Positions 8,401 through 37,200 of a DNA stretch of 64,000 nt are shown in pieces. Numbering within the stretch: position 1 is the first letter of the stretch; every line of letters begins with the position of its first letter. The notes beneath the pieces are model-generated. The model was not told the origin of the DNA and did not search any database. It worked only from the letters and a program-made list of their open reading frames with translations. The translations under genes were made by a program, and so were the position numbers. This stretch comes from Auanema rhodensis (lineage: Eukaryota; Animalia; Nematoda): contig OZ059895.1 in the NCBI GenBank assembly GCA_964057225.1, positions 17,856,001 through 17,920,000 of the forward strand. The letters run 5' to 3'.

Positions 8401-10714
8401 CTCAGTTTGAAGAAATAACATCTGTAAATCAATTCAGAATTACCCTCAACTCCTGAGCTTCGCCTCGTTCTTGTTTCTATTTGTTTCATATTGTTCATCC
8501 ACAAACAGTGACTGAAAAGAAATAAGAAAGAAATATATAAATATTTTTCTATCTTATTGTAGCCTCTATAGCTCAGTGGCAGAGCGTTGGTCTTGTAAAC
8601 CAAAGGTCGGTGGTTCAATCCCGCCTGGAGGCAATTTTTTTTCTTTCTGAACACCTCAGTTTGAAGAAATAACATCTGTAAATCAATTCAGAATTACCCT
8701 CAACTGCTGAGCTTCGCCTCGTTCTTGTTTCTATTTGTTGCATATTGTTCATCCACAAACAGTGACTGTATAGAAATATTTTTCTATCTTATTGTAGCCT
8801 CTATAGCTCAGTGGCAGAGCGTTGGTCTTGTAAACCAAAGGTCGGTGGTTCAATCCCGCCTGGAGGCAATTTTTTTTCTTTCTGAACACCTCAGTTTGAA
8901 GAAATAACATCTGTAAATCAATTCAAAACTACCCTCAACTGCTGAGCTTCGCCTCGTTCTTGTTTCTATTTGTTGCATATTGTTCATCCACAAACAGTGA
9001 CTGTATAGAAATATTTTTTTCCTTATTGTAGCCTCTATAGCTCAGTGGCAGAGCGTTGGTCTTGTAAACCAAAGGTCGGTGGTTCAATCCCGCCTGGAGG
9101 CAATTTTTTTTCTTTCTGAACACCTCAGTTTGAAGAAATAACATCTGTAAATCAATTCAAAATTACCCTCAACTGCTGAGCTTCGCCTCGTTCTTGTTTC
9201 TATTTGTTTCATATTGTTCATCCACCAACAGTGACTGTATAGAAATATTTTTCTATCTTATTGTAGCCTCTATAGCTCAGTCGCCTGGAGGCAATTTTTT
9301 TCTTTCTGAACACCTCAGTTTGAAGAAATAACATCTGTAAATCAATTCAAAATTACCCTCAACTGCTGAGCTTCGCCTCGTTCTTGTTTCTATTTGTTTC
9401 ATATTGTTCATCCACAAACAGTGACTGTATAGAAATATTTTTCTATCTTATTGTAGCCTCTATAGCTCAGTGGCAGAGCGTTGGTCTTGTAAACCAAAGG
9501 TCGGTGGTTCAATCCCGCCTGGAGGCATTTTTTTTCTTTCTGAACACCTTAGTTTGAAGAAATAACATCTGTAAATCAATTCAAAACTACCCTCAACTGC
9601 TGAGCTTCGCCTCGTTCTTGTTTCTATTTGTTTCATATTGTTCATCCACCAACAGTGACTGTATAGAAATATTTTTCTATCTTATTGTAGCCTCTATAGC
9701 TCAGTCGCCTGGAGGCAATTTTTTTCTTTCTGAACACCTCAGTTTGAAGAAATAACATCTGTAAATCAATTCAAAATTACCCTCAACTGCTGAGCTTCGC
9801 CTCGTTCTTGTTTCTATTTGTTTCATATTGTTCATCCACCAACAGTGACTGTATAGAAATATTTTTCTATCTTATTGTAGCCTCTATAGCTCAGTCGCCT
9901 GGAGGCAATTTTTTTTCTTTCTGAACACCTCAGTTTGAAGAAATAACATCTGTAAATCAATTCAAAATTACCCTCAACTGCTGAGCTTCGCCTCGTTCTT
10001 GTTTCTATTTGTTTCATATTGTTCATCCACCAACAGTGACTGTATAGAAATAAGAAAGAAATATATAAATATTTTTATTCCTTATTGTAGCCTCTATAGC
10101 TCAGTGGCAGAGCGTTGGTCTTGTAAACCAAAGGTCGGTGGTTCAATCCCGCCTGGAGGCAATTTTTTTTCTTTCTGAACACCTCAGTTTGAAGAAATAA
10201 CATCTGTAAATCAATTCAGAATTACCCTCAACTCCTGAGCTTCGCCTCGTTCTTGTTTCTATTTGTTTCATATTGTTCATCCACAAACAGTGACTGAAAA
10301 GAAATAAGAAAGAAATATATAAATATTTTTCTATCTTGTTGTAGCCTCTATAGCTCAGTGGCAGAGCGTTGGTCTTGTAAACCAAAGGTCGGTGGTTCAA
10401 TCCCGCCTGGAGGCATTTTTTTCATTCTGAACACCTCAGTTTGAAGAAATAACATCTGTAAATCAATTCAGAATTACCCTCAACTGCTGAGCTTCGCCTC
10501 GTTCTTGTTTCTATTTGTTTCATATTGTTCATCCACAAACAGTGACTGTATAGAAATATTTTTATATCTTATTGTAGCCTCTATAGCTCAGTGGCAGAGC
10601 GTTGGTCTTGTAAACCAAAGGTCGGTGGTTCAATCCCGCCTGGAGGCATTTTTTTTCTTTCTGAACACCTCAGTTTGAAGAAATAACATCTGTAAATCAA
10701 TTCAAAACTACCCT
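2487..10714 (+). repeat. tRNA-Thr(TGT) tandem array block 1 (~37 units, 13 with a 44-nt internal tRNA deletion)
   Basis: 234-235-bp unit (72-nt tRNA + ~162-nt spacer); 190-191-bp deleted units; a few ~254-bp units with a spacer insertion. Confidence 0.95.
2631..2702 (+). tRNA. tRNA-Thr(TGT), first copy and representative of the array unit
   Basis: 72-nt cloverleaf: acceptor GCCTCTA/TGGAGGC, D stem GCTC/GAGC, anticodon stem TTGGT/ACCAA with loop CT-TGT-AA (anticodon 2663-2665), T arm GGTGG-TTCAATC-CCGCC, discriminator A, no encoded CCA, followed by an oligo-T Pol III terminator. Confidence 0.97.
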
Positions 10715-11080
10715 CGTTCCATTATGCTCCTACGTATATTGAACAGACCATTGTAGTCTGCTCAACTACGCGTATAGTATTCCATAAGTGTAGCGGTATG
10801 GAAACAGAGCATAAGGATTACATAAGATAAGGAAATATATAGGTTTATTATACACAATACAATATCATTACAATACAATAACACAAGTATAAAGTAAACT
10901 ACATTTACAAGACAAAGACTAATATATAAGATTAACTAAGTTAGATGCAAACCGTCCATGGGCTTGCAAAGGGGCGAACTCCCGAATAGGGGCATGAGGG
11001 AAGGCGGTGCCATTCCTCATTCCTCTAGTCGGTCTGGCTCTAACCCTGTAGTTACATATATAGAGTCTCCGAATGGAACG
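10715..11080 (-). repeat. 3' LTR of gypsy family A
   Basis: Direct repeat of 22418-22783; 9-bp terminal inverted repeat CGTTCCATT...AATGGAACG; AATAAA on the - strand near 10844-10849. Confidence 0.95.
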
Positions 11081-11090
11081 TGCCCTTTTT
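11081..11090 (-). promoter_or_regulatory. Polypurine tract of family A (AAAAAGGGCA)
   Basis: Purine run abutting the 3' LTR; the identical sequence abuts the family B LTR (25986-25995). Confidence 0.85.
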
Positions 11091-11780
11091 CAAAGATTGT
11101 CGCGACCTCGCGATATTTTAAACAAAAATTTTGGGCTTATATGTAACTGAGTTTTAGAGTTCAATTGTTTTAGCTTCACAATAACTATAGTATGATAGAG
11201 TTTTAGTTAGTATACAAACAAAATTACAATAATTTATAAGAAGGGTTCAATATAATATGAAGTGACGATGAATTAGAATATTATTAATTTCATAAATTAA
11301 TTATCTTAATATTCAAGCATTTCCTAATAGAGATTGTAGAATAAGGGGCTAGTAATGAATGGGAATATGTTATTATTTTGACTAATGGTCTCAAGAAGTA
11401 CTCATTTCTAAATTGAACCGAGATTATGATTTAATAATGTGTCTCCATATGTCTCCCAGAGTGAATCCTTGATTACTAATGGAGACTACCACTTAAGATG
11501 AAATTGTGGTTGATACGCCTACCAGTGTTTATCTCATCTTATTTGGAGAGGCACATGGAGCTCGGATGGTTGTCAAAATGTCCTCTAGTCCGCATAGGAT
11601 TACGGTAACTTGGAACCATTAGTCATAACATCTCCTCGTTTAGAATTTGCCTTATTTTTCCTTTCTCAATCTCTATTAAATGCTATTTTTATTTTGAATG
11701 TTATTTAGTATTAATTTTTTTTTCTCTAATTCATCTTTATTTTGTTACAATAATTTAAATAACGTAGCATTATCTTGTTG

Positions 11781-14700
11781 TTATTCTTCTTCATTCCTCG
11801 GAAGCCATATTTCGTCTTCATTTTCATCTTCTGGCTCTGTATCTATGCTATCCTTGTTGTTCCTGTTGATCACTTCTATTATTTCGATGTCGCTATCTTC
11901 TTCTGCTTGACTTTCTCGAAATCTTGCGCGAGTGTTGTAAGAGATGTTTTGTGAAGCAGGAGAGAAGATTTTCAAGTTATCTTTGTGGATATCTTGTAGT
12001 TTTCCTGATGAATTTCTGATTTGAACTTTTGATCCTTCTACGTTGATGACTTCGTATGGTCCATCATAGCTTTTCCGAAGCTTTTGGCCGATTTGGTGTG
12101 ATTTTATAGTCGTCATCACCATGTCGCCCGGTTGAATGTCTCTATGGTGTGCTCTTTGCGTTCTATCTTTCTTCTTTTTCGCATTTTCTTGATTTTTAGC
12201 TATGCGGTTCTTTATTATTTCGTCTCTCTTGTCCATATCTGGTCTTCTTTGGAGTAATTCTTCAGAAATTTCTTGAATTTTGGTGATCGTTTCTGGTAAT
12301 TCAGCGTCCATTGACATTCTGCATTCTTTACCGAATAATGCAATGTAAGGCGCAATCCCTGTAGTCGCGTGCTGAATATTGTTAATAGCAAAAGTGATTT
12401 TTGGTAATACAGTATCCCAGTCACTAAGGTCCTCTTTTAAGTAGTGGGTTAATCCTTCTTCGAGGGTTCTGTGAAGTCTTTCCACTTGTCCATTTGAGTT
12501 CTTTTGGTGTGGTAGTGTTGGTTCATGTTTGATTCCAAGTTTAGTACACATTTCTTCGAACTTTTTGGATACAAAGTTCGAACCTCTATCGGTGATCAAG
12601 CGATGGGGTGGTCCAAAAATGTAAACGAAATGTCGTAGAAATCGGTCAATTGTGATTTCCGTTGTTATTTGTGGTACAGCAATTGTTGTTGACCATTTTG
12701 TAAATGCGTCTTGCATGGTAATGACGTAGGTACAGTTTCTTTTTGAAGGGGGAAATGGTCCCATTACGTCCATGTGGACTCGTTCAAATGGCTTGCTTGG
12801 TATCTCAAAATGACCTATTGGTTGTACCGTCATGGAATGTGGATCTTTTTTTCTTTGAGCACATTTAATGCAGTTCTTGATGAATATAGTAATGTCGTTC
12901 TGCATATTTGTCCAATAGAATCTTCTTAGAATTGCTTCTTTTGTTTTAATAATTCCTTGATGTGCTGCAATTGTAGGATCCTCATGAAAAACTTTGATTA
13001 TTTCCTCAATTATGGGGTGTTCTTGTGGTATTACGATAGCGGGTTGTGGCTTTTTGTCTGTTGGTTTTGTATAGAGCAAGTCATTTATGACACAATATCT
13101 GTCATTAGCTGTCATGTTCTTTTGTGCTCTATATTCAATCTCCGCTATCGTCCGTTTAATCCAAGGGGTGCTTAGTTGAATTTCCTTTATTGTTGGTGTA
13201 TTTATGGCGTTAATGTGAATTTCTTCCATTTTCTTCTTCTTTGTTTCCGGCTTAGCATCGTTAGCTTCTTCACCTATATATCGAGATAGAGCATCGCATA
13301 CTTTATTTAATTGGCCTGCGCGATATTTTATTTCAATATCATATTCTTGGATGACCAGCTGGAACTTCGCAAGACGACCAAATAAGTCTCTGCGTGTCAT
13401 TAAGCTGGTGAGAGGTCGATGGTCCGTAATACATATAGTATGAGTTCCAAGAATGTATGTACGGAATTGATTTAATGCATATACAAGGCCTAATGCTTCT
13501 ATCTCGATTGGTGCGTAGTTACGTTCGGCTTTAACTAGTTTTCTGCTTGCAAATGCGATAGGGTGTAGATTTTTCAGAGGTTGTTTTGGATCTTCCGGTT
13601 GTAATAATACAGCACCTATGGCGATGTTACTACCGTCGCTTTCAACTATAAACAAGCGGTCCGATTTAGGTGGGCTTAAAACGGGTGCCTGTATTAAACT
13701 TCTTTTAAGGAGGTCTAAAGCTTCTTGATGTTTGTTTTCCCATTTGAATTCAGTATCTGCCTTTGTCAGATCGTATAAAGGGCTTGCGATACGTGCAAAA
13801 TCTTTCATGAATTTGCGAAAGAATCCAACCATTCCCAAGAATGCTCGTACACCTGTTGCATTCTTTGGTGCCGGATAATCTTGTATGGCGGCGACTTTTT
13901 GAGGGTCAGGTTTTATACCTTGACGTCCAACAATAAGTCCTAGAAATTTCACTTCTGGTTGAGCAAAAGCGCATTTCTTAAGCTTTATCTTCATTCCCAA
14001 TTCTTCTACTGCTTGCAGTAAATCATCGATATCTTTGAGATGTTGTTCTCTTGTATCAGATATAACTAATAGATCATCCAAATAAACAAATAGTTTACAA
14101 GAACATTTACTTTGCAAATACCTTACTGCTGTTTGAAAGGTATGAGGGGCTCCACAAAGGCCCATCGGCATCCGTTTGTACTGGTATGTGCCGGATGTGG
14201 TCGTAAATGCTGTTAGTGGTCGATCTGATTTTCTCAAGGATATTTGAAAAAATCCTGACACTAAATCGAAGTTTGAGAAAAATTGGGCGCCTGCTGCCAA
14301 ATCAACTATGTCAGAAATGCTTGGAATGACATAAGTTTGCTTGCGTGTGACATTATTTAAAGCTCGAAAATCTGTCACAAACCTATACGTGTCATCTTTC
14401 TTCTTAACTAGTACTACAGGGCTATTAAATAGAGATGTAGAAGGCTCTATTATGCCTTGCTCAAGCATTTCTTTGACTTGTTTTTCAATTTCTTCCTGTT
14501 TTCCTAAGGGAATACGTGTTATTCTCGGCTTTGGCATATCCATATCTGTTCTCAATGGTATGGTATGCTCTATAGAACCTTTAAATAAGCCTATTTTCCT
14601 GTCCTCGTTAAGAAATGCCTCACGATGGCTTTCAATTATTTTTGTAAGCTCATGTTTTTCTTCTTTCGTGAGATCAGCATTCTCTAGATCAAGATCTTTT

Positions 14701-17700
14701 ATGAAGTCTCTTGGAAAATATGGTAGTTTACTCTCCCAATCGGCTTCTGGCGGAACATATGGTAGAATTGGCTTATGCTTAAAGGGTTCACAAGCCGGAA
14801 TTTCTCCAATTATTGCCTGTCCGATGACTGAATTAGCTTCCATAGCTATTGTTTCATCGGTATTGTTACGGAACATAACATATACTCCACTGGTATCACG
14901 AAACGCAGTTGGATATAATGATTTTAATGCGCTTCCACTATCCCCTAAGACAACCACTTCGTTAGATTCTAGTGGTTTATCTGTCTTTATTGGGATAGGT
15001 GCCTCTTCATCAGGCTTTAATGTTTTTGTTCTTAAATTAATGATATTCACAGTTATCTCCGTATGCTTAATAGATTCGTTTCCTATTAATGGGATGGCAT
15101 TGTTTCCAATCTCCAACCTCTTCTTGGATGGTTTAAGGCTGACGTCGATGTTTTCGCTGTCAAGCGCTTTCATGAAATCTAGTCCAATCAAAGCAGGAGC
15201 AGGACAGTCACGATCGTTTGAGACCAAAAAGGTGTGTTCGATCTCGTAGCCGGCAATTTCAATTACAAGATTTATCTTTCCATAAAATGTGAAAGTGGAC
15301 TTGTTGGCTGCCATCGCTACTAAATGTCTCTTCTTGACATTTTCAGCCATGTTCAGATATTTGAGGGTGGAGAGCCTAACATATGACACTGATGAGCCTG
15401 AATCCCATAAAGCTAAAATCAGTTTATCTTCAACTGATATATATATTAATGGTAACTTTGTTTCCGCTGATGCAATAGAAGCAACAAATGGTATTGCGAT
15501 TGGAATAAATGTTACTAAAGCAGGATAGTATTGCTTCATGATGTTATCTGGCATCTGTTGGTCTGGGCGGCTTACAAGTTCCAATGTTTCTTCATAGCCT
15601 GGGGGCTCATTATCTATTTCATGGACATGCATTACGGTTAGTGGAGTGGCTCTGAAGAACCAAAATTTAGCAACAACGAAAAGAATTATTAATACTGCGG
15701 CAATCGTGACTATTGATCCTATAAAGATGAGTGTTCTCTCAATTGAACCTATTAGAAATTGTTTTACGCTAGTCCAGGCGGAAGTTGTGAACTCAGCTGC
15801 TTTAGAGATATAGTCACTGCCCTTTTTCAAAAGATTAAAGGCTGACGTAATCTTTGGATCGTTGTGAATAGTATGTAAAACATGGTTCTGTCGTATGGAT
15901 GCTAAACTTGCTCCATATGCAATAGCTGTTGACATTGAGTAAACTCTCAATGATAAATTGGTGTATAAGTTAGCGCCTGTGAACTTTAAAGGTGTTAATT
16001 GGTGGTATTGCGCTTTATCAAAGAGTGATATTGGTTTTACTTCAACCGATCCATTTATATTTATCCATTCTCCATTTTGATAGTACACATCTGTTGGTAC
16101 ATGTTCGCAATCTATCTCTTTTCCATGTGTTAATAAGTCTCTTGATCCTGGAGCAGCAAAATATAATCTCTCATCTTCTGTTATTACTGGTGTTTCCAAA
16201 TAGCATGTATCATTGATCTTATGATTATGATAAACAGCTTTAGGTTGAAGAGGTAAGCATATATGAACATGAACTATATCGCTGCCTACGAAACGGGCTG
16301 CAATATCCTCTCTTCCTAAAATAGTCCTCATTGCTATTGTGGGTTCTATGTGTAAAATAGAACGCCATAGCTCGAGGTATCTATTTTGAATCTCACATAT
16401 GGATTCATAAGATTCCATAAAATGTTTCTGTAGCTCTTCTTGTATGAGTGTTGTTGTATATTGTAGATGATCTTGAGCTATTCTGCGAGATACGTTGAGG
16501 TTGAATTGTATTTCGTTGTTCACTTTTGACGCTGTATACGTTGCCTGAGCCTGAATTTCTCTGGTTTCTACGGGTGGAGATGATGTTCTTTGTTTCCTTA
16601 AGGTTCGTGACGCCGTGTCAGTGACTGTTGCTAATGTTGTTGGCGAGAGAGTCGTAGTTATCACGGCTGTTGTCGTGTCAACTATGGTTGTCGTCGGAAT
16701 CCGAGTCGTATAGCTTATAGTTGTCTCCTGAACTAGTGAAGCGGGTTTGTCCGTTGTTGTCGTTAATGACAGTCTTCTAGTCAGATAAGGCGGTGTTTCA
16801 ATATCCTCTAACAGTGGTAAAAATGTTTTTATAAGTAGCTGGCGTGTATCCGCGCTTGGGGTTTGAATGCGAGGGTGGGGGCCCATCGATATACCGTAGT
16901 TAGAATCTTTATCTCGATATAGTTTGTTGGTATCTGGCACATTGATTGTTAATTGTCGGAACTTTTCATCATCTACGGCTGCTGCTGTTTTATTTGGCCT
17001 TATTACTCGCAATGTCATCAAGTTATGGTATAAGTAAAGTGTATTTCTAAGTACTATACGCTCATCAGCATTGTCAGTTGTTAAAGTTGGTCGGATAGGC
17101 GGCATGTTCACAAAGGATTTTAAAACCTCTTGCCTTGATGGTACCGACAGATTGTTTTCAAATATTACCGGTGTATAAGCTAGCTCCATCGCTATGCTTT
17201 CGGCTCTTTCGCGGTAGGATCCGTCCTTTTCTAGTAGTTTTTCGTCAAATTCGTGTGCTGTTAATCTGTCACCTATCTGTTCTAATAATTGTTGTGAGGT
17301 TAAATACCGTATAGCGCCGCGAGTGGTTGCTGCCAGTTCCTTTTGCGCAAGAAAATAAAGTATTGCTTCCTCAGGGTCGTGTATTTCGTATGTTTGAAGG
17401 AAACGTTGTATGGATTTATCAGATACGGGACTTCTTAAGAAGAAATAAAACTTCTCGGGATGTGCTGAAACCCAATCAATAATTGAATATGAAGGGTTGA
17501 CAGCTCGTCTGGCCTTTATAAGCGGTATTATCTGATAAATACCAGGATTACTCATCACCGGTCGTAAGAAAGGATAAGGACAAATATTTAATATTAAAGT
17601 TTCAAAATCTTCCTGTTTTTGTATCCACTCCTTGTTTAATTCAACCGTGCATTCCGCAATTGCTCTTTTATCTCTTTTCGCCGGAAGTTTCTTATATTCT

Positions 17701-20489
17701 CTCTCTATTAAAACATGGATATTGGTGTCATTTGGGTACTGTGGTAAGAGAATGTAATTGCCAGTCGTGGTGTGGAAGATTGGCTGTTTAAAACAAGAAG
17801 ATATTTGCTTCGGTATCTCTTTTTGATCGATTACAAGGGCTGATTGAGTGGTTGGTAACAGAATAATGCCGTCTCCAATTATCGCATCATATTCACTCAT
17901 GTCGATATAGTTGCATCGATATTCATAAGGCTGTTTCTCCCATATGATGATTGAGGTATCTGATGCACATTCTCCATGATGCGCTAAGCATCCTTCAGTA
18001 TTTAGTATTAAATTGGAGATTATAGTTTCATCTGGCATCCGTGTCATAGCCCCTCTTTCGATAACCAATCTGGCTTTCTCTTTACATAGTTCATTATTAA
18101 AAGATCGGCCTGGCGAGAAGGAAGGCTCGTCAGTTGCATATGTTATGCTGTCGATCTTCTTTAATTCACTCCAATTCCATCTTCTATCTCTCACTGCCAG
18201 TCTGCATTCTGCAGCTGGTATCTTTTCAATTCTCGCTATCGTTGTATTGGTATCTCTAAGGAACAAAAGGTCTCTGATACACATTTTATGAATTTCTTTG
18301 GAGCATCTCCATGCATCCCATTCATGTGCCGTTTGATTCCTTGTATAAAGATGAACTTTTGTTCGTAAGATATGCTTTATTGGTGGTAATAAGCATTTTC
18401 GGAGAGATGGGGGACGGAGAAGGGCTCCTCCAGTAGCTTTAGTACATAGCTGGTATGCTTCAGCTGTTGTAACCAGTGATAAGATTACTGATAAAGCTAC
18501 GGCTAAAGTCAAAGGAGATATCAGAGTCAAATTATTGACTCTTGAGCCTCTACCTCTGCCTCTATTGTTGTTATTTCCCCTAAAGGTACTGTTATTTCTC
18601 TGTCTATTATTGCTCATTTCTTGATTTTGTGATGCATTGTGGCTTCTTTGATACCCATTTTGATTTTGATTCTGATAATTTCGACCGCGGTCACCAAAAT
18701 TGCGGTTCCTAGCAAATGGGTTTTGGAAATTCCAGCCTTTTTGATTTTTTGAAAATTTATGATAATTTTGATTGTTTTGAAAGTTTGGATGATAATTGTT
18801 ATAATTATTATTATAATTTTGATAATTTTTATTATTAAAAGATTGATAACCTCTTGCCATACCTCTCCCACCATTGTTTCTGCGCGGGGGGAAAGTTCTT
18901 TCAATTGCGTTAACCAATAGCGCCTGAGGGTCTGCTACTTGGTTTGCAATTGATTCCTCCCAGCGAGCACTATCAACAGCCTCAGCAAAAGTTTTGGGTT
19001 TTGCTCGAATTACCCCTGGGCGTATCGTATTTTTCAAGCCTCTCAAAAATGTGGACCTCAGAATGTGATCTTTATGAGTATCACTATTAGAGAAAGCATT
19101 TAAGCTGAGGTTTCTTAACGTTTGTGCAAAACCATCAATTGATAAATCGCCTTGAGTGCTGTTTTGAAGTGTGATAAGGGCAGGGTCTTGATTGTATTCG
19201 GGACACAGCTTGGATGTTAACTCTTCTATTAGGGTAACCCAAGGTCCAGCTGTTCTGACCTTGTCAGGTAGCTCTAAATAAGCTTCCTCTGCTCTATCAT
19301 TTTTCAATAGTAATGGTAAAATAGTTAGTCTTTCGGGCATCACTAAGCCTAAGGCGTTAGAAAAGGTATTAAACTTTGCCACGAAATCTCTAAAGTTACG
19401 ACTTCCGTCGTATATGGGGCAATAAGGTGAGCTTAATGCGTGCGCAATGGTAGATTTACCAGCTCCCGGAAGACGTGGTGTCTCCGTCATGGTTGGTATA
19501 TCCTCAGGGTATGTGCGAGATGACGTAATCCCTTTACTGCCTGAGCTTCTCGCCGTTAAGTTCTTACCTCCCTTTTTCGAGTTACCAGATGTTGGATAAC
19601 TAATGGTAGGGGCGGCTGAGGAGAACCGCTTCCCTGGGAGTTTGATAACTCGACTCGTTGCCTGAGGCGTCGAATGTATTGAAACGCTTGAACTGGGTAT
19701 AGCGCTATCTGACTTATTAAGGGTTGGGTTGGAGGATACGTGAAGAGAGTTATCAACTTGTTCTGTTGTTACCTCCCCTGGAGACAAATTCAAAACTTTT
19801 ATTAAGCGAGCTGTTAAAGATTTCTTACTTTTGAACTTATCAGTAGTTAGTGATAAGGGCAAAACTTCGGTAATTTCCTGATTTGGTTCTACGGGATTAT
19901 TAGAGGTTGAGCGCCTACGCGGTGTATTAGTTTTTCTTTTATTAATCTTTTTAGAATCAAGCTTTTTCGAATCAAGCTTATCAGTGATAACTGATAAGGG
20001 TGATTTGCGAATAGTGAGAGATGAGGTTTTATTAAGTTGTGAGTTTTCTGTCGGAGTGGAAAATGCCTGCGGTGTTAGAGTTAGTTCAAAAGAAGATGCA
20101 AGATCGTTATCAGTATTAACTGATAAAGTTGATAAGTTTAGGTGGGGGGTGGCTGGTGAAGTATTAGAGGTTATTTGTTTTGGTTTTTGAATTTTTTGAA
20201 TCTTTTTATTACTTTTAAAAGAGTGTACCTTTGGAGTTGAAGCTGAAGTTTGAATATTGTAGTCCTGAATATAGAAATCAGGGTCCTCCTCGGTGTTGTC
20301 CGGAGGTGAATACGTGCCTTCTCGAGGAATGAAGGTTTTCTCGACTTTGGGTTTTACCTCTTGTTCAGGCTCTTCAATCTGAACACTGAGGAGTCGAGTG
20401 CGGCTTCTGGTTCGACTGGCGACTGCGATGTCGTCACTGGACTCAGAAGGGTATAGAGCAGGGACGGCCGAAGAGTATCTTCGTGCCAC
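11781..20489 (-). CDS. Gag-Env-Pol polyprotein (capsid-like Gag, gB-like envelope, aspartic protease, RT, RNase H, integrase); true start uncertain (GTG 20489, first ATG 19490)
   Basis: Protease LWDSGS (DSG 15404-15396), RT YLDD (14084-14073), RNase H ESDGS/EALG/TDH, integrase HHCC + D,D,E (VHMD, ITDRGSN, NGQVER) + GPY; Gag-like FLRGL motif; no stop in 2902 codons. Confidence 0.95.
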   Translation of the reverse strand: MARRYSSAVPALYPSESSDDIAVASRTRSRTRLLSVQIEEPEQEVKPKVEKTFIPREGTYSPPDNTEEDPDFYIQDYNIQTSASTPKVHSFKSNKKIQKIQKPKQITSNTSPATPHLNLSTLSVNTDNDLASSFELTLTPQAFSTPTENSQLNKTSSLTIRKSPLSVITDKLDSKKLDSKKINKRKTNTPRRRSTSNNPVEPNQEITEVLPLSLTTDKFKSKKSLTARLIKVLNLSPGEVTTEQVDNSLHVSSNPTLNKSDSAIPSSSVSIHSTPQATSRVIKLPGKRFSSAAPTISYPTSGNSKKGGKNLTARSSGSKGITSSRTYPEDIPTMTETPRLPGAGKSTIAHALSSPYCPIYDGSRNFRDFVAKFNTFSNALGLVMPERLTILPLLLKNDRAEEAYLELPDKVRTAGPWVTLIEELTSKLCPEYNQDPALITLQNSTQGDLSIDGFAQTLRNLSLNAFSNSDTHKDHILRSTFLRGLKNTIRPGVIRAKPKTFAEAVDSARWEESIANQVADPQALLVNAIERTFPPRRNNGGRGMARGYQSFNNKNYQNYNNNYNNYHPNFQNNQNYHKFSKNQKGWNFQNPFARNRNFGDRGRNYQNQNQNGYQRSHNASQNQEMSNNRQRNNSTFRGNNNNRGRGRGSRVNNLTLISPLTLAVALSVILSLVTTAEAYQLCTKATGGALLRPPSLRKCLLPPIKHILRTKVHLYTRNQTAHEWDAWRCSKEIHKMCIRDLLFLRDTNTTIARIEKIPAAECRLAVRDRRWNWSELKKIDSITYATDEPSFSPGRSFNNELCKEKARLVIERGAMTRMPDETIISNLILNTEGCLAHHGECASDTSIIIWEKQPYEYRCNYIDMSEYDAIIGDGIILLPTTQSALVIDQKEIPKQISSCFKQPIFHTTTGNYILLPQYPNDTNIHVLIEREYKKLPAKRDKRAIAECTVELNKEWIQKQEDFETLILNICPYPFLRPVMSNPGIYQIIPLIKARRAVNPSYSIIDWVSAHPEKFYFFLRSPVSDKSIQRFLQTYEIHDPEEAILYFLAQKELAATTRGAIRYLTSQQLLEQIGDRLTAHEFDEKLLEKDGSYRERAESIAMELAYTPVIFENNLSVPSRQEVLKSFVNMPPIRPTLTTDNADERIVLRNTLYLYHNLMTLRVIRPNKTAAAVDDEKFRQLTINVPDTNKLYRDKDSNYGISMGPHPRIQTPSADTRQLLIKTFLPLLEDIETPPYLTRRLSLTTTTDKPASLVQETTISYTTRIPTTTIVDTTTAVITTTLSPTTLATVTDTASRTLRKQRTSSPPVETREIQAQATYTASKVNNEIQFNLNVSRRIAQDHLQYTTTLIQEELQKHFMESYESICEIQNRYLELWRSILHIEPTIAMRTILGREDIAARFVGSDIVHVHICLPLQPKAVYHNHKINDTCYLETPVITEDERLYFAAPGSRDLLTHGKEIDCEHVPTDVYYQNGEWININGSVEVKPISLFDKAQYHQLTPLKFTGANLYTNLSLRVYSMSTAIAYGASLASIRQNHVLHTIHNDPKITSAFNLLKKGSDYISKAAEFTTSAWTSVKQFLIGSIERTLIFIGSIVTIAAVLIILFVVAKFWFFRATPLTVMHVHEIDNEPPGYEETLELVSRPDQQMPDNIMKQYYPALVTFIPIAIPFVASIASAETKLPLIYISVEDKLILALWDSGSSVSYVRLSTLKYLNMAENVKKRHLVAMAANKSTFTFYGKINLVIEIAGYEIEHTFLVSNDRDCPAPALIGLDFMKALDSENIDVSLKPSKKRLEIGNNAIPLIGNESIKHTEITVNIINLRTKTLKPDEEAPIPIKTDKPLESNEVVVLGDSGSALKSLYPTAFRDTSGVYVMFRNNTDETIAMEANSVIGQAIIGEIPACEPFKHKPILPYVPPEADWESKLPYFPRDFIKDLDLENADLTKEEKHELTKIIESHREAFLNEDRKIGLFKGSIEHTIPLRTDMDMPKPRITRIPLGKQEEIEKQVKEMLEQGIIEPSTSLFNSPVVLVKKKDDTYRFVTDFRALNNVTRKQTYVIPSISDIVDLAAGAQFFSNFDLVSGFFQISLRKSDRPLTAFTTTSGTYQYKRMPMGLCGAPHTFQTAVRYLQSKCSCKLFVYLDDLLVISDTREQHLKDIDDLLQAVEELGMKIKLKKCAFAQPEVKFLGLIVGRQGIKPDPQKVAAIQDYPAPKNATGVRAFLGMVGFFRKFMKDFARIASPLYDLTKADTEFKWENKHQEALDLLKRSLIQAPVLSPPKSDRLFIVESDGSNIAIGAVLLQPEDPKQPLKNLHPIAFASRKLVKAERNYAPIEIEALGLVYALNQFRTYILGTHTICITDHRPLTSLMTRRDLFGRLAKFQLVIQEYDIEIKYRAGQLNKVCDALSRYIGEEANDAKPETKKKKMEEIHINAINTPTIKEIQLSTPWIKRTIAEIEYRAQKNMTANDRYCVINDLLYTKPTDKKPQPAIVIPQEHPIIEEIIKVFHEDPTIAAHQGIIKTKEAILRRFYWTNMQNDITIFIKNCIKCAQRKKDPHSMTVQPIGHFEIPSKPFERVHMDVMGPFPPSKRNCTYVITMQDAFTKWSTTIAVPQITTEITIDRFLRHFVYIFGPPHRLITDRGSNFVSKKFEEMCTKLGIKHEPTLPHQKNSNGQVERLHRTLEEGLTHYLKEDLSDWDTVLPKITFAINNIQHATTGIAPYIALFGKECRMSMDAELPETITKIQEISEELLQRRPDMDKRDEIIKNRIAKNQENAKKKKDRTQRAHHRDIQPGDMVMTTIKSHQIGQKLRKSYDGPYEVINVEGSKVQIRNSSGKLQDIHKDNLKIFSPASQNISYNTRARFRESQAEEDSDIEIIEVINRNNKDSIDTEPEDENEDEIWLPRNEEE
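15655..18530 (-). other. Envelope glycoprotein domain within the polyprotein (class III fusogen, herpesvirus gB / chuvirus G-like)
   Basis: Internal signal peptide ending AEA|YQLC (18530-18456), Cys-rich ectodomain with about 10 N-x-S/T sequons, furin-type KRDKR (17678-17664), a gB domain III/IV-like segment ICEIQNRYLELWRSILHIEP..LGREDIAARFVGSDIVHVHICLP..CY, and a C-terminal TM helix (15735-15655). Confidence 0.85.
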
Positions 20490-20905
20490 TTTGGAATCAC
20501 TCTTGGTTTGGAAAAACCGCGAGTGTTTCGTTATATGGGGGATGTTGACGTTGAATGAGTGACAAGAAATTCAGGTCGGTTATAGGGAAAAGTAAGAAAA
20601 GTTTGAAGATTGAGACGTGGCGTCTTTCGCCGAGAATCGTTATTAGATGAGAAAGAGTTTTAAAATCTTGGCCTGAGATCTGGCTCCGCCTATCTACCGT
20701 ATTCTCTTTTCTTTATTCTATTTCACAGATGTTCATCAATTATAAATTTTGTTGGTCTTCGCTCTTTCTAGCCTCAATCTTAATACTTTACTCTAATTGA
20801 ATTCTTGAAAGTATGAGAGAGATTTTCAGTCGTTTTATGTCCCCTTTTTATGCATAAGAATCTTTATATTTGTAGAGCTGAAAAAAAAAATAAATAAATC
20901 AAAGA

Positions 20906-21439
20906 ATGGCTTATGAAGGTCTATCGGGAATGACTTTTGTCTTGAGGAAGCTGTACGCTGACCTCGTCTTGTATGATCAAGACGAAGTGTTAGCTTATAG
21001 GCCGCACCCAGACATAATTAAGATGGTTGGTTAAAACAAAGAAACATGTTATCTTAATAAGAATTTTTAGTTTATTGAGGATTTAAAGATGCATTATCTG
21101 GGAAGGGGATTAGTAAACTTCTCCCTAATGCAGGAAATAGCGGATGAGGTTGCAGCTATCCGGCGATGGTGCCTCACCGACTTGTGCGCGCATTGGTATG
21201 AAAACCCAAATCTGGTCGCATCCCCTTGGAATTGGTATGAGCATAAGTCTCATGATTTTTATGATTATATGTCTAAAATTTTGTTTAAAATTTATTTATT
21301 TTATGAACAGTCTCCTATGGGCTTATTGCTAAGGACCTCTGCGGATTCAGTGTATTCGCAGTATTTAGAGCCTAGCGATGAGCCCATCTCACAGCCTATA
21401 GAATTTGTGAGACAGTTGCATTTTAAATGGGGCTTTTAA
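20906..21439 (+). CDS. Predicted spliced antisense accessory gene in the family A leader (exons 20906-21025, 21071-21439; 162 aa, unknown function)
   Basis: 40-codon ATG exon; a 45-nt GT..TTTTTAG intron (21026-21070) joins in frame to the 116-aa ORF; AATAAA at 21456-21461. Confidence 0.6.
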
Positions 21440-22404
21440 CAATTGTTTTATATATAATAAATACTTAATTTCACTCATTTGTTCTCTCTCTCTTTTTTTT
21501 TCATAACACAAACTTTGGTCGAGCTTATTAATAAAGAAGGAGTGCGTGCGCCTTGGGAAAATGGCTCATGTGCACGTTGATTATTAAAAGCCGTGGGCGA
21601 TTCTTTTTCGGAATGATTATGGCATGCTAATGAGATTCCGAGAATATTTAAAAAGATTGCTCATTTTACTAATGGACTGAGACCAAAGCTCGTTTATAAA
21701 ACGCAATTTTTTTCTTTAAACCATTCTACTAATTTATAGAATATTACAATATGAATACTACGGTAGGTGTGTGGGAATATCTTATGATGTTAGCAACAAA
21801 AATGAGCTGAGGAAGGTGACACATTCTACGGAGAAGAAAACATCCGTAGCCCATGTGCTTTCGCCAAAATGACCTGACAGGCAATAAAATTTGTGCCAGG
21901 ATTTTTCGGACTAGTGTGGTCTATTCTCACAATCAAAAAAAAATAAAAACCGAATAACGGCTCCCGCAAAAATATTTAGTTAGCATGCTCTTTTACGCCT
22001 GAATTTAACTTTCAAATCTCTAGTCCTGACCACAATAAAATATTAAACTTTGTGCGCTTTCAAAATTTCATTCTAACTCCTCGTTGCCAAATAATAATGT
22101 AATCAAAATTTCGTTTGGTGAAATTGTCCCCTATTTCGATCCAAACGTCCTCAAAAAAAAATGCAAGAGAAGCGGTGCAGGATACGGTATTATAAGGGTG
22201 GACACTCAGACGGTTTTATGAGTGGGGACAGCGGGTGAAATTTCAAAATTATATAGTCCTAGCTCTCTAAAAGAGAGATCCCTTGTACCTGCACCTTATA
22301 CAAGTTGGCGCCCTCATTATGTTGCTAACCGTGGAGGAAGTTTTAATTTAGATATCAAAATATGGACTTTTTATGCGAGTTTTTTGCGACAAAAATGAGT
22401 TCGA

Positions 22405-22417
22405 GGTGGAACCTCCA
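22405..22417 (-). promoter_or_regulatory. Primer-binding site complementary to the tRNA-Gln 3' end
   Basis: TGGAGGTTCCACC directly follows the 5' LTR; it is the complement of the animal tRNA-Gln 3' end GGTGGAACCT-CCA. Confidence 0.85.
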
Positions 22418-22783
22418 CGTTCCATTATGCTCCTACGTATATTGAACAGACCATTGTAGTCTGCTCAACTACGCGTATAGTATTCCATAAGTGTAGCGGT
22501 ATGGAAACAGAGCATAAGGATTACATAAGATAAGGAAATATATAGGTTTATTATACACAATACAATATCATTACAATACAATAACACAAGTATAAAGTAA
22601 ACTACATTTACAAGACAAAGACTAATATATAAGATTAACTAAGTTAGATGCAAACCGTCCATGGGCTTGCAAAGGGGCGAACTCCCGAATAGGGGCATGA
22701 GGGAAGGCGGTGCCATTCCTCATTCCTCTAGTCGGTCTGGCTCTAACCCTGTAGTTACATATATAGAGTCTCCGAATGGAACG
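22418..22783 (-). repeat. 5' LTR of gypsy family A
   Basis: Direct repeat of 10715-11080 with no differences seen by eye; adjacent to the PBS. Confidence 0.95.
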
Positions 22784-24883
22784 CCCTCAACTGCTGAGCT
22801 TCGCCTCGTTCTTGTTTCTATTTGTTTCATATTGTTCATCCACAAACAGTGACTGTATAGAAATATTTTTCTATCTTATTGTAGCCTCTATAGCTCAGTG
22901 GCAGAGCGTTGGTCTTGTAAACCAAAGGTCGGTGGTTCAATCCCGCCTGGAGGCAATTTTTTTCTTTCTGAACACCTCAGTTTGAAGAAATAACATCTGT
23001 AAATCAATTCAAAATTACCCTCAACTGCTGAGCTTCGCCTCGTTCTTGTTTCTATTTGTTTCATATTGTTCATCCACAAACAGTGACTGTATAGAAATAT
23101 TTTTCTATCTTATTGTAGCCTCTATAGCTCAGTGGCAGAGCGTTGGTCTTGTAAACCACAGGTCGGTGGTTCAATCCCGCCTGGAGGCATTTTTTTTCTT
23201 TCTGAACACCTCAGTTTGAAGAAATAACATCTGTAAATCAATTCAAAATTACCCTCAATTGCTGAGCTTCGCCTCGTTCTTGTTTCTATTTGTTTCATAT
23301 TGTTCATCCACCAACAGTGACTGTATAGAAATATTTTTCTATCTTATTGTAGCCTCTATAGCTCAGTCGCCTGGAGGCAATTTTTTTTCTTTCTGACCAC
23401 CTCAGTTTGAAGAAATAACATCTGTAAATCAATTCAAAATTACCCTCAACTGCTGAGCTTCGCCTCGTTCTTGTTTCTATTTGTTTCATATTGTTCATCC
23501 ACCAACAGTGACTGTATAGAAATATTTTTCTATCTTATTGTAGCCTCTATAGCTCAGTGGCAGAGCGTTGGTCTTGTAAACCAAAGGTCGGTGGTTCAAT
23601 CCCGCCTGGAGGCAATTTTTTTTCTTTCTGAACACCTCAGTTCGAAGAAATAACATCTGTAAATCAATTCAAAACTACCCTCAACTGCTGAGCTTCGCCT
23701 CGTTCTTGTTTCTATTTGTTGCATATTGTTCATCCACAAACAGTGACTGTATAGAAATATTTTTCTATCTTATTGTAGCCTCTATAGCTCAGTGGCAGAG
23801 CGTTGGTCTTGTAAACCAAAGGTCGGTGGTTCAATCCCGCCTGAAGGCAATTTTTTTCTTTCTGAACACCTCAGTTTGAAGAAATAACATCTGTAAATCA
23901 ATTCAGAATTACCCTCAACTGCTGAGCTTCGCCTCGTTCTTGTTTCTATTTGTTTCATATTGTTCATCCACAAACAGTGACTGTATAGAAATATTTTTAT
24001 ATCTTATTGTAGCCTCTATAGCTCAGTGGCAGAGCGTTGGTCTTGTAAACCAAAGGTCGGTGGTTCAATCCCGCCTGGAGGCATTTTTTTTCTTTCTGAA
24101 CACCTCAGTTTGAAGAAATAACATCTGTGAATCAATTCAAAATTACCCTCAACTGCTGAGCTTCGCCTCGTTCTTGTTTCTATTTGTTTCATATTGTTCA
24201 TCCACCAACAGTGACTGTATAGAAATATTTTTCTATCTTATTGTAGCCTCTATAGCTCAGTGGCAGAGCGTTGGTCTTGTAAACCAAAGGTCGGTGGTTC
24301 AATCCCGCCTGGAGGCATTTTTTTAATTTCTGAACACCTTAGTTTGAAGAAATAACATCTGTAAATCAATTCAAAACTACCCTCAACTGCTGAGCTTCGC
24401 CTCGTTCTTGTTTCTATTTGTTTCATATTGTTCATCCACAAACAGTGACTGTATAGAAATATTTTTCTATCTTATTGTAGCCTCTATAGCTCAGTGGCAG
24501 AGCGTTGGTCTTGTAAACCAAAGGTCGGTGGTTCAATCCCGCCTGAAGGCAATTTTTTTCTTTCTGAACACCTCAGTTTGAAGAAATAACATCTGTAAAT
24601 CAATTCAAAATTACCCTCAACTGCTGAGTTTCGCCTCGTTCTTGTTTCTATTTGTTTCATATTGTTCATCCACAAACAGTGACTGTATAGAAATATTTTT
24701 ATATCTTATTGTAGCCTCTATAGCTCAGTGGCAGAGCGTTGGTCTTGTAAACCAAAGGTCGGTGGTTCAATCCCGCCTGGAGGCATTTTTTTTCTTTCTG
24801 AACACCTCAGTTTGAAGAAATAACATCTGTAAATCAATTCAGAATTACCCTCAACTGCTGAGCTTCGCCTCGTTCTTGTTTCT
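22784..24883 (+). repeat. tRNA-Thr(TGT) array block 2 (~9 units, one deleted)
   Basis: Same 234-bp unit; resumes in register at the CCCT TSD. Confidence 0.95.
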
Positions 24884-26353
24884 TGGAAAAGCATCAAGAA
24901 TTAGCAAAAAAGAAACATGATGCTCGATTACGCACTCACGAAAGAGATATACAAAAAGGAGACTGCGTTATGTTAGCTGTGAAAATGCACAAGCCAGGAC
25001 AAAAGCTTCGGAAAGCTTATGATGGACCATTTGAAGTTATAAATGTGAAGGGAAACATGGTTCAAATCAAAAACCTTTTCGGAAAGATCCAAGACGTTCA
25101 CAAGGACAATCTCAAATTATTTAATCGAGAAACAGATGACGGAATCGCACATATGCCCAGTGCACGTACAGACAGCTCAGACGATGACAGCGTTATCGAA
25201 ATCATAGAGGTTATCAACGGAAACAACAACGATGAAGACTCTTATGACGAACCAGAAGACCTTTCGGATACAAATTGGCTACCATCAAGAAGAAACCATT
25301 AACTCATGAGATTTTATCGTAAATTGTTTTGTAATAACTTTCTTTAAAGTAATACTAGAACACAAATTTTGTAACGAGTCCTCTAAAACAAGTCACTCTT
25401 AAGTCAAAAAGTAAACTAGAGCATAATGAATACGGGAAATGTGAGAAGATAATTCTTTATCATACAGTTCGAACCTTCCTAATTTCAACTAACATCCCCA
25501 TACTAGATGAGATGAAAAATGAAAGACATAGTTTGCAACAATATCTGAGCAACAGTCTTCACTTGAGTAATCAATGACTAAATTTGGAAGTTATTTGGTA
25601 TTACGCAAAACTTTTCTTTTTTTCTAAACTCACACAAATTGAAACAAACAACCGAGCTCTAAAAAAAAAAAAAAAATAGTTAACTTTTTGTCTACACTTG
25701 TTAGAGCGTTATGCTTAAAAACTTTTTTTATTATTATTTTATAAGCACGTTCGCCAATAAAACATAGTCTAGTATTCGTTAAAGAGGGTTAAAACTTTCA
25801 TAATTTGGTTAAAAATTTTTAATTCTTTTCAGATACTGATGTTTTATATTGTATTATGTTCATATTATAAGAATTTTACGTAAAATATTGTATTGTAACA
25901 TGTACTTTAATACACACATTAACCCTTCTGCTACAGTTAATCAAGTCAAAACTTTTGATTGTCGCGAGGACGCGACATAAACTCGAAAAAGGGCACGTTC
26001 CATTCGGATGATCAATGCATTACATTCATATGACGAAGCTGTAGCAGGCGGGTTACAGTCAGAGAATGCGAGACTGAGAGAAGACGACCCGCCCTTTTCC
26101 ATATTACAACACTTCAGCTTTGCCTCAGGGACGATCATGGATGGTTGGTCGTTCTCTCTCTGTTCTCTATTAGTTTAACCTTTACTTAGTTATATGTATC
26201 TTATTGTAATCACGTAGATATAATAAACCAATCTTTCTCGCGTCTTATGTTTATCCTTATGCTCCATGTTTAACCGCTACATCTGGAATACTACCACGCT
26301 CATCTTGTAGACTCCATTGGTCTGTAAGATCGACGCGGGAGCATAACGGAACG
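24883..26353 (+). mobile_element. 3' fragment of gypsy family B (integrase C-terminus 24883-25302, 3' UTR, PPT, LTR)
   Basis: ORF with YDGPF motif homologous to the family A integrase tail; PPT AAAAAGGGCA at 25986-25995; 5' end fused to the array spacer. Confidence 0.92.
25996..26353 (+). repeat. 3' LTR of gypsy family B (358 bp)
   Basis: Starts CGTTCCATTCGGA after the PPT and ends GAGCATAACGGAACG, paralleling the family A LTR ends; AATAAA near 26222. Confidence 0.88.
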
Positions 26354-32795: not shown

Positions 32796-34217
32796 ATCTC
32801 ATCTAGTATGGGGAAGTTAGTTGAAATTAGGAAGGTTCGAACTATATGATAAAGAATTATCTTCTCTCATTTCCCGTGTTCATTATGCTCTAGTTTACTT
32901 TTTGACTTAAGAGTGACTTGTTTTAGAGGACTCGTTACAAAATTTGTGTTCTAGTATTACTTTAAAGAAAGTTATTACAAAACAATTTACAATAAAATCT
33001 CATGAGTTAATGGTTTTTTCTTGATGGTAGCCAATTTGTATCCGAAAGGTCTTCTGGTTCGTCATAAGAGTCTTCATCGTTGTTGTTTCCGTTGATAACC
33101 TCTATGATTTCGATATCGCTGTCATCGTCTGAGATGTCTGTACGTGTACTGGGCTTATGTGCGATTCCGTCATCTGTTTCTCGATTAAATAATTTGAGAT
33201 TGTCCTTGTGAACGTCTTGGATCTTTCGGAAAAGGTTTTTGATTTGAACCATGTTTCCCTTCACATTAATAACTTCAAATGGTCCATCATAAGCTTTCCG
33301 AAGCTTTTGTCCTGGCTTGTGCATTTTCACAGCTAACATAACGCAGTCTCCTTTTTGTATATCTCTTTCGTGAGTGCGTAATCGAGCATCATGTTTCTTT
33401 TTTGCTAATTCTTGATGCTTTTCCAAATTTTCTTGAATGATTGTTTTCTGTTTGCTTCGGATTTTCTCAATATTTTCAATCTCCTTTGAAATTTCTTTTG
33501 GTTCAGTTGTTTCGGGGTATAAATCTTTATCCAATCTCAAACGGCTTTCTTTCCCAAATAGTACAACGTATGGTGATATTCCTGTGGTTGCATGCGTTGT
33601 GGTGTTCAATGCAAAGGTAATTTTTGGCAAAAACATGTCCCAATCAGTGACATCTTTGTTGAGATAATGTGTGAGTCCTTCTTCTAACGTTTTATGAAGT
33701 CTTTCTACTTGTCCATTGGAATTCTTCTGATGTGGGAGTGTTGATTCATGTTTGATACCGAGTTTTTCGCACATGTCTTCAAATTTCCTTGATAGGAAGT
33801 TGGAACCGCGGTCTGTTATTAAGCGATTCGGTGGTCCATAGACATATACAAAGTTTCTGAGGAATCTATCAATGACAACTTCACTAACAATTGTTGGTAT
33901 GGCGATAGTTGTAGCCCATTTGGAGAAAGAGTCTTGTATTGTGAGAACATAGCTGTTGTTCCTTTTTGATGTTGGGAATGGTCCCATGATATCCATATGT
34001 ATTCTCTCAAATGGTTTTGATGGTATGTTAAATTGACCCATTGGTTGTACGGTCATAGCATGAGGATCTTTCTTTCGTTGTGCACATTTGATGCACTGTT
34101 TTACGTATTTTGCTATGTCGTTCTGCATGTTAGTCCAGGAAAATCTTCGTAATATGGCTTCTTTTGTTTTGTTAATTCCTTGATGCGCCCCGATTGTTGG
34201 GTCTTCATGAAATTCTT
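32795..34217 (-). mobile_element. Inverted duplicate of the family B integrase region and partial 3' UTR (ORF 33007-34128)
   Basis: Reverse complement of 38923-40345 (coordinates sum to 73140); identical 373-aa translation. Confidence 0.93.
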
Positions 34218-34222
34218 CAATA

Positions 34223-37200
34223 GCTCGAGCTCAAGACGTCGCTATATTAGAAGAGGAACAGAAAGTAGACAAGAAGCCGGATAATTTCCTTATTCCTACT
34301 ACTGATTCTGTCTCACCTACTGAACAACTAGGCGACCCGGACTACGTACCTACTATAGAAGAAGAACTATCAATCATTGTGGAGGAACAAACACCGATCA
34401 CTCCTAAAAAGGTACGCTCCTCTAATTCTAATAAAAATAAGAAAAATCAAAACATCAGCGACGCTTCTCAGTCTCTCTCACTAACCGAACCAACCGATTC
34501 CCCTTTACTTTCAAAAACTTCTAGCGCAGGTAGGCTTAGTTCTCTTAGAAACATTGTTACTGATCTTTTTAACCTTTCGCCTAAAGATAAAACTTTCAAC
34601 ACCAAGCGTAAAAGCAGATATTCATCAGTCCCTAACATTAATATCTCACCAATTCAACCACCTGCGCCAAATACCAGTATTCATCAAACTTCTACTCCCA
34701 TCTTAACAACAACAGACTCACTTCCTAAGGCACCCAATAGACCTATTCCATCCACGCAAACAACCCCTATTTTGGAGACCCCACCAATAACAGGTAGAAC
34801 GATCAAAATACCATCTACCCGTACGAATAACATCATGACGGAAGCTGTTTCCTCACTACTTGGGGCAGGGAAAACAACAATCGCGCAAGCCTTACTTTCG
34901 CCTTACTGTCCAACTTACGACGGCAGTCGTAACTTCCGTGATTTTACGGGTAAATTCAACTTGTTTGCTAATGCCATTGGCCTTGTTATCCCTGAAAGGT
35001 TAGCACTTCTTCCTTTGCTTCTCAAAAATGAAGCAGCAGAAGAAGCTTACAGACAAGTTCCTGAACAACTTAAAACAACTGGTTCGTGGAATGATCTGAT
35101 TAGAGCACTAACATCGAAGCTCTGCCCTGAATATAATCAAGACCCTGCACTAATTAACCTTCAAAACACCACGCAAGGGGAATTGACAATTGATGCATAC
35201 GCCCAAGCATTAAGAACAATGGCATTGAGTGCATTTGCATCTGATGACCCACATAAAGATCAAATACTGAGATCAACATTCCTCAGAGGACTTAAAAATT
35301 CTCTAAAACCAGCTGTGATCCGAGCGAAGCCAAAATCCTTCACAGAAGCGATTGAAGCAGCTCGCTGGGAGGAATCGATAGTGAACCAAACAACAGACAC
35401 GCAATCGATGTTGGTCAACGCTGTGAACAAAGCACTAGCACCCTTTGCGCGTAATGATGAGAGACGAGATAGCCAAACATTTAATCGCAATTATCAACGC
35501 GATAACCAAATGATAAGAAACAATCAAAATTATCAAAATAATCAAAATTATCAAAAAAATAAAAACTTTTCTAATTTCAATAATAATCGAAACCGTTACG
35601 GTTCTTTCGCTAATAATCGCCGTACAAATTATAACGAACAAGATAATAGGCAATCGAGTTCTGATTGGCATCAAAGAAATTATAATTTTCGTCATAACAA
35701 CCAACGAGGTAGATTCAATAACAACAACGGACAAAGAAGAGTTCAATTCAAAAATCCAAGAGACAACTTAAGAGGAAGAGATAGAAGCTCAACAAGAATA
35801 AACTCTGTCACCCTTTCGCCTTTGACGCTTACACTTATCATGGCAATAACAGCAGCAATATTCTTGCCCTGTGCATCTACATATCAAATCTGTACAAGAG
35901 CAACAGGAGGTGCATTACTTATGCCACCAACAATCAGAAAATGCAGATTAACAGAGAAAAACCATGTGCTACGTACAGAAGTTCATCTATACACAAGAAA
36001 TCACACAGCACACGAATGGGATGCGTGGCGTTGTTCAGAGGAAGTACACAAGTTATGCGTACGAGAGCGCGCGTTCAACCGCGACGCGTGCGAGGAGCGG
36101 TCACGTCTAATATTAGAGCGCGGAGTCATGACCCGTATGCCTGACGATACAATATTGTCAAACTTAATATTAAACACGGAAGGATGCAATGCACATCATG
36201 GTAATTGTGAATCAAGTACATCAATAATAATATGGGACCCCCAAACCACTGTTTCACGTTGTAATTATATCGATATGCATACATATGACGCTATCATTAG
36301 TCAAGATACTATTTTAATCCCTAGTACACAATCGGCACTTATTCTTTCGAGCAAACCAACTCCGAAACCTATTTCTTCTTGCTTCAGGCAGCCAGCGTTC
36401 TATACGACATCAGGAAATTATATCATTCTTCCTAAATTTCCAAACGACAACAATATAACCACCCTTATTGAAAGAGAGTTCAAAAAGCTGCCGTTTAAAA
36501 GACCAAAACGTGCAGTCACCGAAGGATGTTCTTTCCCGCTGGATCAAGATCGGATCAACAAAGTTGAAGATTATGAAACAGTATTGCTTCACGTTTGTCC
36601 ATATACTTTCCTAAGACCATTAATGAGTAATCCCGGTATTACTTCAATTATTCCTATAATCAAAGGAAGACGTTTAGTAGATCCAACATACTCTCTAAAG
36701 GCATGGATAACATCACATAAAGAAAAATTCGAATTTTTCTTCAGAATTCAAATAAATGAACATTCTGTTCGACATTTTCTCAAGCAATACGATTTCAGTG
36801 ATAAAGAAGAAGCTCTGCTATATTATATAGCACAAAGAGAATTAGCCATTACTACAAAGGCAGCAATATCATACTTAACATCTGAACAGCTTCTCAAACA
36901 AATATCAGATCGTTTGACAGTAATCGAAATCGATAAAATCATAAGGAAGAAAGAAGGTTCATATCGCGAACGAATTGAAAGCATAGCTCTCAATTTAACC
37001 AATACACCAGTTATAATTGAAGAAGGACTGACAGTTCCATCACGACAAGAAGTCCTACAAACGTTATGCCACCAATAAGGAAACGTATACTAACTGACGA
37101 GGAAGAGAAGAAAAGCGAATTCATTAAGGCAACGATCAATTTGCTAAGAGAATGAAATCTTCTCAACAGAACAACAGTACGACTATATTCCACCAGAAGC

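Follow-up and report, generated by a model that had tools for sequence, protein, structure and literature searches.

A nematode-type gag-env-pol Ty3/gypsy element in Auanema rhodensis with CG...CG long terminal repeat ends and a 4-bp target site duplication

The stretch of Auanema rhodensis DNA analysed here (contig OZ059895.1, positions 17,856,001 to 17,920,000; 64,000 nucleotides (nt), hereafter the window) carries a Ty3/gypsy element, termed element A, inserted in one spacer of a tandem tRNA-Thr array. The TG..CA ends usual in Ty3/gypsy elements are absent from A, the long terminal repeats (LTRs) of which read 5'-CG...CG-3'. In retroviral and LTR-retrotransposon DNA, few features are as conserved as the terminal CA. 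We conclude with good confidence that A belongs to the nematode type of gag-env-pol Ty3/gypsy elements and has CG...CG ends and a target site duplication (TSD) of 4 base pairs (bp), that the end joined by its integrase is likely CG-3', and that this trait was likely gained separately from Troyka, a group in which CG...CG ends are already known. The features of the insertion are as follows.

10711..10714, plus strand: left TSD copy, CCCT, 4 bp, in a spacer of the tRNA-Thr array
10715-22783, minus strand: element A, Ty3/gypsy
10715..11080, minus strand: 3' LTR of A, 366 nt, CGTTCC...GGAACG
11081..11091, minus strand: polypurine tract (PPT; purines at 11091-11083) and then CA, immediately preceding the 3' LTR
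11781..20570, minus strand: single stop-free frame of 2929 amino acids, first Met at residue 361, with gag-like region, envelope (env), protease, reverse transcriptase (RT), RNase H plus integrase
12054..12062, minus strand: GPY motif in the C-terminal part of the integrase, residues 2837-2839
12501..12503, minus strand: integrase Lys2690, opposite Pro214 of the foamy virus integrase in a gap-free alignment, in the loop preceding the catalytic Glu2697
15651..18530, minus strand: envelope region upstream of the protease, bounds approximate, from a hydrophobic stretch at residue 681 to a membrane stretch at about 1614-1640
22406..22417, minus strand: primer binding site (PBS), 12 nt, abutting the LTR without a spacer and matching in full a tRNA-Gln PBS tabulated for gag-env-pol elements of Caenorhabditis
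22418..22783, minus strand: 5' LTR of A, 366 nt, same sequence as the 3' LTR
22784..22787, plus strand: right TSD copy, CCCT

The two LTRs of A are identical at 366/366 positions. As an earlier note on this DNA had observed, all four of their ends (10715/11080 and 22418/22783) and both ends of the LTR of a second family in the window, B (25996/26353), read CGTTCC...GGAACG. The perfect terminal inverted repeat spans 9 bp in the A LTR and 6 bp in the B LTR. The boundaries are also anchored as described there, with the PBS abutting the 5' LTR, the PPT ending 2 nt before the 3' LTR and CCCT present on both sides; the empty target site was found in 128 array units. A boundary caller blind to the terminal motif returned a sole call for A, namely CG..CG with a 4-bp TSD. 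Applied to 13 control gypsy LTR pairs, chosen from gypsy loci located in contig scans with nematode-clade alignments, the same caller gave TG..CA ends with 4-5-bp TSDs and 1-4-nt spacers in nine cases, one doubtful AA..TT call and no call in the remaining three, with CG..CG in 0/13.

At the window locus two readings fit, CCCT (4 bp) and, with the left end one base further in, CCCTC (5 bp). The boundaries might accordingly be misread, either with the TSD 5 bp long and one end a base too far out, or with the integrated ends being ACG...CGT, in the manner of the AGT...AnT ends given for Drosophila errantiviruses (PMC5408687), a style with which the internal LTR junctions of A (ACGTTCC and GGAACGT) overlap. 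We consider this highly improbable in view of further loci in public sequencing runs, 11 of which contain the element and seven of which were examined at the level of contigs. In run X7, the left flank of an A LTR ends in TAAC directly before CGTTCC, and the right flank, which is also present in run X1, starts with TAAC after GGAACG, a 4-mer match with a chance of about 0.005 at this locus. When readings of 3-6 bp were tried with both left-end positions, only CG..CG with the 4-bp TSD TAAC fitted, while the 5-bp reading gave a mismatch (TAACC versus TAACT). Because this locus admits the 4-bp CG..CG reading only, the ambiguity between 4 and 5 bp is settled; the 5-bp caveat raised in the earlier note fits the window locus but fails here. 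A 3-bp TSD fails at both loci with paired junctions, whereas 4 bp fits at 2/2. A third left junction, found in run X11 and derived from A or a sister family, likewise begins with CGTTCC. Across the three left junctions, CG is preceded by T, C and C, never by A, which excludes ACG...CGT as the integrated end, and the presence of the terminal C in both LTR copies of A also speaks against misread boundaries.

The suggestion that other insertions be checked for termini and TSD length thus yielded a second locus with CG..CG ends and a 4-bp duplication, and TG or CA at an LTR end was seen in none of the matches listed for the examined runs. The same ends recur in related LTRs, as in X11 the same PBS is joined, on one contig, to the end of a family B LTR, a third LTR family in runs X6 and X7 retains the arrangement of PBS, CGTTCC...GGAACG and PPT, and a deep contig of this diverged third family in run X1 terminates exactly at the terminal G. 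A right flank starting with CC in run X2 was discounted as weak, this run showing adapter and chimeric ends. Run X11 additionally holds an 11.1-kb contig from a subfamily sister to A, with an LTR differing at ~11% of positions.

With two loci showing 4-bp TSDs, the joining of a CG-3' end by this integrase lineage is the most likely course of integration, and the sequences next to the LTRs suggest how such an end may arise. The inverted repeat runs exactly two bases past the integrated ends, with CA ahead of the 3' LTR, in A as in B, and TG after the 5' LTR. This extension by exactly two bases points to a symmetric 2-nt extension on the linear complementary DNA (cDNA). The minus strand would be primed by tRNA-Gln and the plus strand by the purine run, producing a symmetric linear cDNA with 2 extra nt at its ends, from which the integrase would clip TG and expose CG-OH, followed by strand transfer staggered by 4 bp. 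Alternatively, the cDNA may carry a 1-nt or blunt end. Ty1 requires no end clipping, and HIV-1 retains one primer ribonucleotide. Of the end processing envisaged in the earlier note, the joining step stands as most likely and the clipping is presumed. Among the elements tabulated in Supplementary file 1 of PMC13524379, a tRNA-Gln PBS is given in eight Caenorhabditis rows of the 36 for Nematoda, at a distance from the LTR end of 0 nt in six and -1 nt in two; two of the eight are identical to the PBS of A over 12 nt. A TG..CA gypsy element with a tRNA-Gln-like PBS and a 2-nt spacer was encountered in another contig (L097:7586-7600), and Gln priming by itself thus does not bring CG ends.

The coding content, a gag-env-pol arrangement that the earlier note did not mention, places A among nematode elements. 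Within its single frame the order is envelope (match at residues 1366-1509), protease (1712-1801), RT (2055-2213) and integrase (2520-2688). The envelope match is to the glycoprotein B (gB)-type family PF24664 (E-value 6.3e-15, above the curated cut-off), accompanied by a gB-type match to PF00606 that lies below its cut-off (E-value 7e-9), and the gag Pfam match was found on the sister family B, to which A is 47% identical over that region. A thereby shows the features of Ty3/gypsy elements (Metaviridae), namely the order protease-RT-RNase H-integrase, LTRs, PBS, PPT and a TSD within 4-6 bp, as well as those of nematode gag-env-pol elements, namely the GAG-ENV-POL order, an envelope of the herpes simplex virus (HSV)/gB type and the grouping of pol. 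The closest proteins are from Caenorhabditis, Diploscapter, Heterorhabditis and Auanema (42-62% identity over RT/integrase), with Panagrolaimus also among the nearest by identity, and several of the nearest share the domain set of A. Judged from these proteins, the host would be a chromadorean nematode. Best matches of the RT and of the integrase are both nematode gag-env-pol proteins. In a quick RT-RNase H tree, supported by the Shimodaira-Hasegawa-like approximate likelihood ratio test (SH-aLRT) only and left unrooted since the BEL/Pao RT of the window, with its very long branch, was unsuitable as outgroup, A and B are sisters (99) within the nematode group. None of the scanned loci placed in the tree fall inside the nematode clade, and a search for clade members in metagenome, viral and prokaryote-genome contigs (79, 1, 49 and 2 loci) gave none above 45% identity.

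Nematode gag-env-pol elements were reportedly named NERV by Sacco et al. in 2022. GAG-ENV-POL elements of nematodes with a gB-type env have been described as 'Nematoda errantiviruses' (Chary and Hayashi, PMC13524379), with which A shares the gene order, the envelope type, the tRNA-Gln PBS abutting the LTR and the size (LTR of ~370 nt, element of ~12 kb), no difference from A being apparent. Terminal dinucleotides and TSD lengths are absent from the available text and Nematoda table of this source, and the CG ends may be either an undescribed trait of the nematode gag-env-pol clade or particular to the branch of A. The frame of A is also open for 360 codons ahead of its first Met (19491-20570, minus strand), a stretch rich in Ser, Thr and Lys that possibly reflects translation from a non-AUG codon, splicing or an additional product encoded upstream.

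The CG termini, flagged in the earlier note as non-canonical, are real but not unprecedented. Kojima 2025 (PMC12440569) delimits Troyka by two characters, CG..CG ends and a TSD of 3 bp, and names the ends as the distinguishing feature; Kuafuorterviruses include Troyka according to PMC11673190. As A shares the terminal dinucleotides and a single long open reading frame (ORF), present in most Troyka (PMC12440569), it might belong to Troyka or have taken its integrase or LTRs from there, in which case CG ends would have had a single origin. There is little to recommend this explanation in the remaining characters. The TSD is 4 bp in A, at both loci with two junctions, versus 3 bp in Troyka (one Troyka insertion with a 4-bp TSD is noted in PMC12440569), and the terminal pentamers are CGTTC/GAACG versus CGCCA/TGGCG. 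The variants given for 603 Troyka LTRs in the available part of that source do not include the pentamers of A; no listed 5' variant matches, and the 3' variants are not listed in full. A has an envelope and a GPY motif (starting at residue 2837), whereas Troyka lacks env and its integrase is without GPF/Y. Conversely, the CX2CX8-10HX4C zinc knuckle of Troyka Gag has no match in the 2929-residue frame of A, and a search for it in the collected proteins and loci gave doubtful matches only. The internal part of A, with 11,337 nt, exceeds the Troyka maximum of 7,691 nt. Finally, Troyka hosts are aquatic and Nematoda are absent from the Troyka distribution table as available (PMC12440569), and both RT and integrase of A match nematode gag-env-pol proteins best. 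A separate gain of CG ends in the lineage of A is therefore preferred.

Family B is represented in the window by the following features.

24884..25995, plus strand: 3' end of a family B copy, with integrase C-terminus, 3' untranslated region (UTR) and the same PPT and CA as in A
25996..26353, plus strand: family B 3' LTR, 358 nt, CGTTCC...GGAACG, its right end a host junction and its left end internal
34211..40345, plus strand: broken internal part of family B, with gag, partial env and pol in pieces, without LTR; sister of A

The pol proteins of A and B are 69-78% identical, and their LTRs are 73% identical over 143 nt with the remainder unmatched, the terminal hexamers being kept. As A and B are sister families in one lineage, the two gypsy families of the earlier note count as one case; the left end of the B LTR is internal and the window offers one B host junction. 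In two array units (27275-27295 and 27982-28002), 21 nt of the B LTR end are present as a patch at the junction of the B insertion. These patches were rejected as independent insertions, their junction being the same as that of B, and were likely copied between array units by gene conversion or unequal exchange. Around the broken B copy (region 32795-40345), where the orientation of the array switches, ~1.4 kb of family B integrase and 3' UTR sequence is duplicated in inverted orientation.

A possible correlate of the CG end lies in the integrase loop beside the DNA end. The loop of A aligns without gaps to the integrases of foamy virus and Ty3, placing Lys2690 and Asn2691 opposite foamy virus Pro214 and Gln215, and in the Rous sarcoma virus (RSV) intasome the positions equivalent to Pro214 and Gln215 sit at the DNA end (PMC7955051). 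In a tally of related, not independent, integrases (P0023 excluded, its alignment being out of register), Pro is replaced by Lys or His in A and its rhabditid relatives, with 10/10 clade proteins tallied, and also in B, while it is retained in the Panagrolaimus relative and in 304 of 314 other integrases, the remaining ten comprising nine with Ala and one doubtful case. The check on end-contacting residues suggested in the earlier note thus revealed Lys or His for Pro in the clade proteins tallied; that the change helps the integrase to accept G instead of A is, judged from the alignment, a doubtful lead and not a shown cause.

Combining these characters, it is conceivable, although we lean against it, that the Gln-primed nematode gag-env-pol clade as a whole switched from CA to CG together with the change of Pro to Lys or His in the loop. 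This would be a second origin, convergent with Troyka, in which the CA of the primer itself would serve as the clipped overhang. Several points weigh against the conclusions drawn for A as a whole. The two TAAC flanks of run X7 lie on two contigs overlapping within the LTR only, from which we infer their pairing, and loci with both junctions number two only. The retention of two primer ribonucleotides would be unusual. The tree, besides being unrooted, is without a Troyka reference and does not place A relative to Troyka. The CG ends read are those of A and near sisters. Ala occupies the Pro214 position in the nine integrases noted above, and RSV has Ser there, yet a CA end (PMC7955051), hence loss of Pro need not entail a CG end. 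The dispensability of Pro for CA ends in RSV also lends weight to an alternative in which the CG ends are a quirk confined to a few sister families of this host group, with a relaxed integrase, the wider nematode clade having TG..CA ends and the loop change being unrelated. Indeed, the runs in which CG ends were seen form one related set, and every such end belongs to A or a near sister. We nevertheless regard such a quirk as rather unlikely, given that the zero-spacer PBS and the loop change are common to the Caenorhabditis relatives and that the hexamer is conserved across LTR families with diverged bodies, which points to selection. If the clade-wide switch is real, enzyme and substrate would have changed as a natural pair, a setting in which to ask why the terminal CA otherwise hardly varies.

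Other elements without TG..CA ends differ from A. Drosophila errantiviruses (gypsy, ZAM, Idefix) resemble it in being Ty3/gypsy elements that carry an envelope and lack TG..CA ends (AGT...AnT; PMC5408687), but have other terminal bases, env after pol and other primer tRNAs (PMC13524379). Plant elements with non-TGCA LTRs share non-canonical termini with A but are mostly Copia with an invariant first base T, the seven non-canonical plant motifs of LTR_retriever all beginning with T (10.1101/137141), and the LTR elements of rotifers are given with TG..CA ends (PMC5408684). No report of CG ends outside Troyka was found in the literature searched, where work on CG ends or Troyka gave this motif for Troyka alone and work on nematode elements, passages of PMC10309623 among it, gave no such report, although Sacco et al. 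2022 or Repbase may already record them. While CG ends are known from Troyka and the element type is known, their combination appears to be undescribed in the literature searched. A Ty3/gypsy lineage with CG ends and a 4-bp TSD means that these ends are not a mark unique to Troyka, and the A-to-G switch has likely occurred twice. The integrase of A, with a loop that aligns gap-free to those of Ty3 and foamy virus, is suited to testing the basis of end recognition. For annotation, LTR callers that enforce a motif would drop or mis-trim such nematode elements; the earlier prediction that LTR finders would miss them holds for these settings, but relatives were found by a motif-free self-BLAST (PMC13524379).

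The array that hosts A extends over window positions 2631-63900, with 143 copies of a tRNA-Thr(TGT) motif in units of ~190-254 nt arranged in blocks of both orientations, and is interrupted by three retroelement insertions and by inversions. Strict targeting of tRNA genes is not supported, as A and B lie at different unit positions and two other loci are flanked by non-array DNA. The array also contains a BEL/Pao element (49622-56521, minus strand) with one in-frame stop in its ORF, an apparent 5' LTR starting with the canonical TG and a 3' end that is cut off. Just ahead of the array, a G+C-rich short-period tandem repeat (1790-2490) gives long spurious frames on both strands. Among the scanned contigs, many of those filed as bacterial metagenome-assembled genomes (L081-L129) carry gypsy elements of eukaryote type, some of which are complete, LTRs and TSDs included, a sign that those assemblies are contaminated with host DNA.

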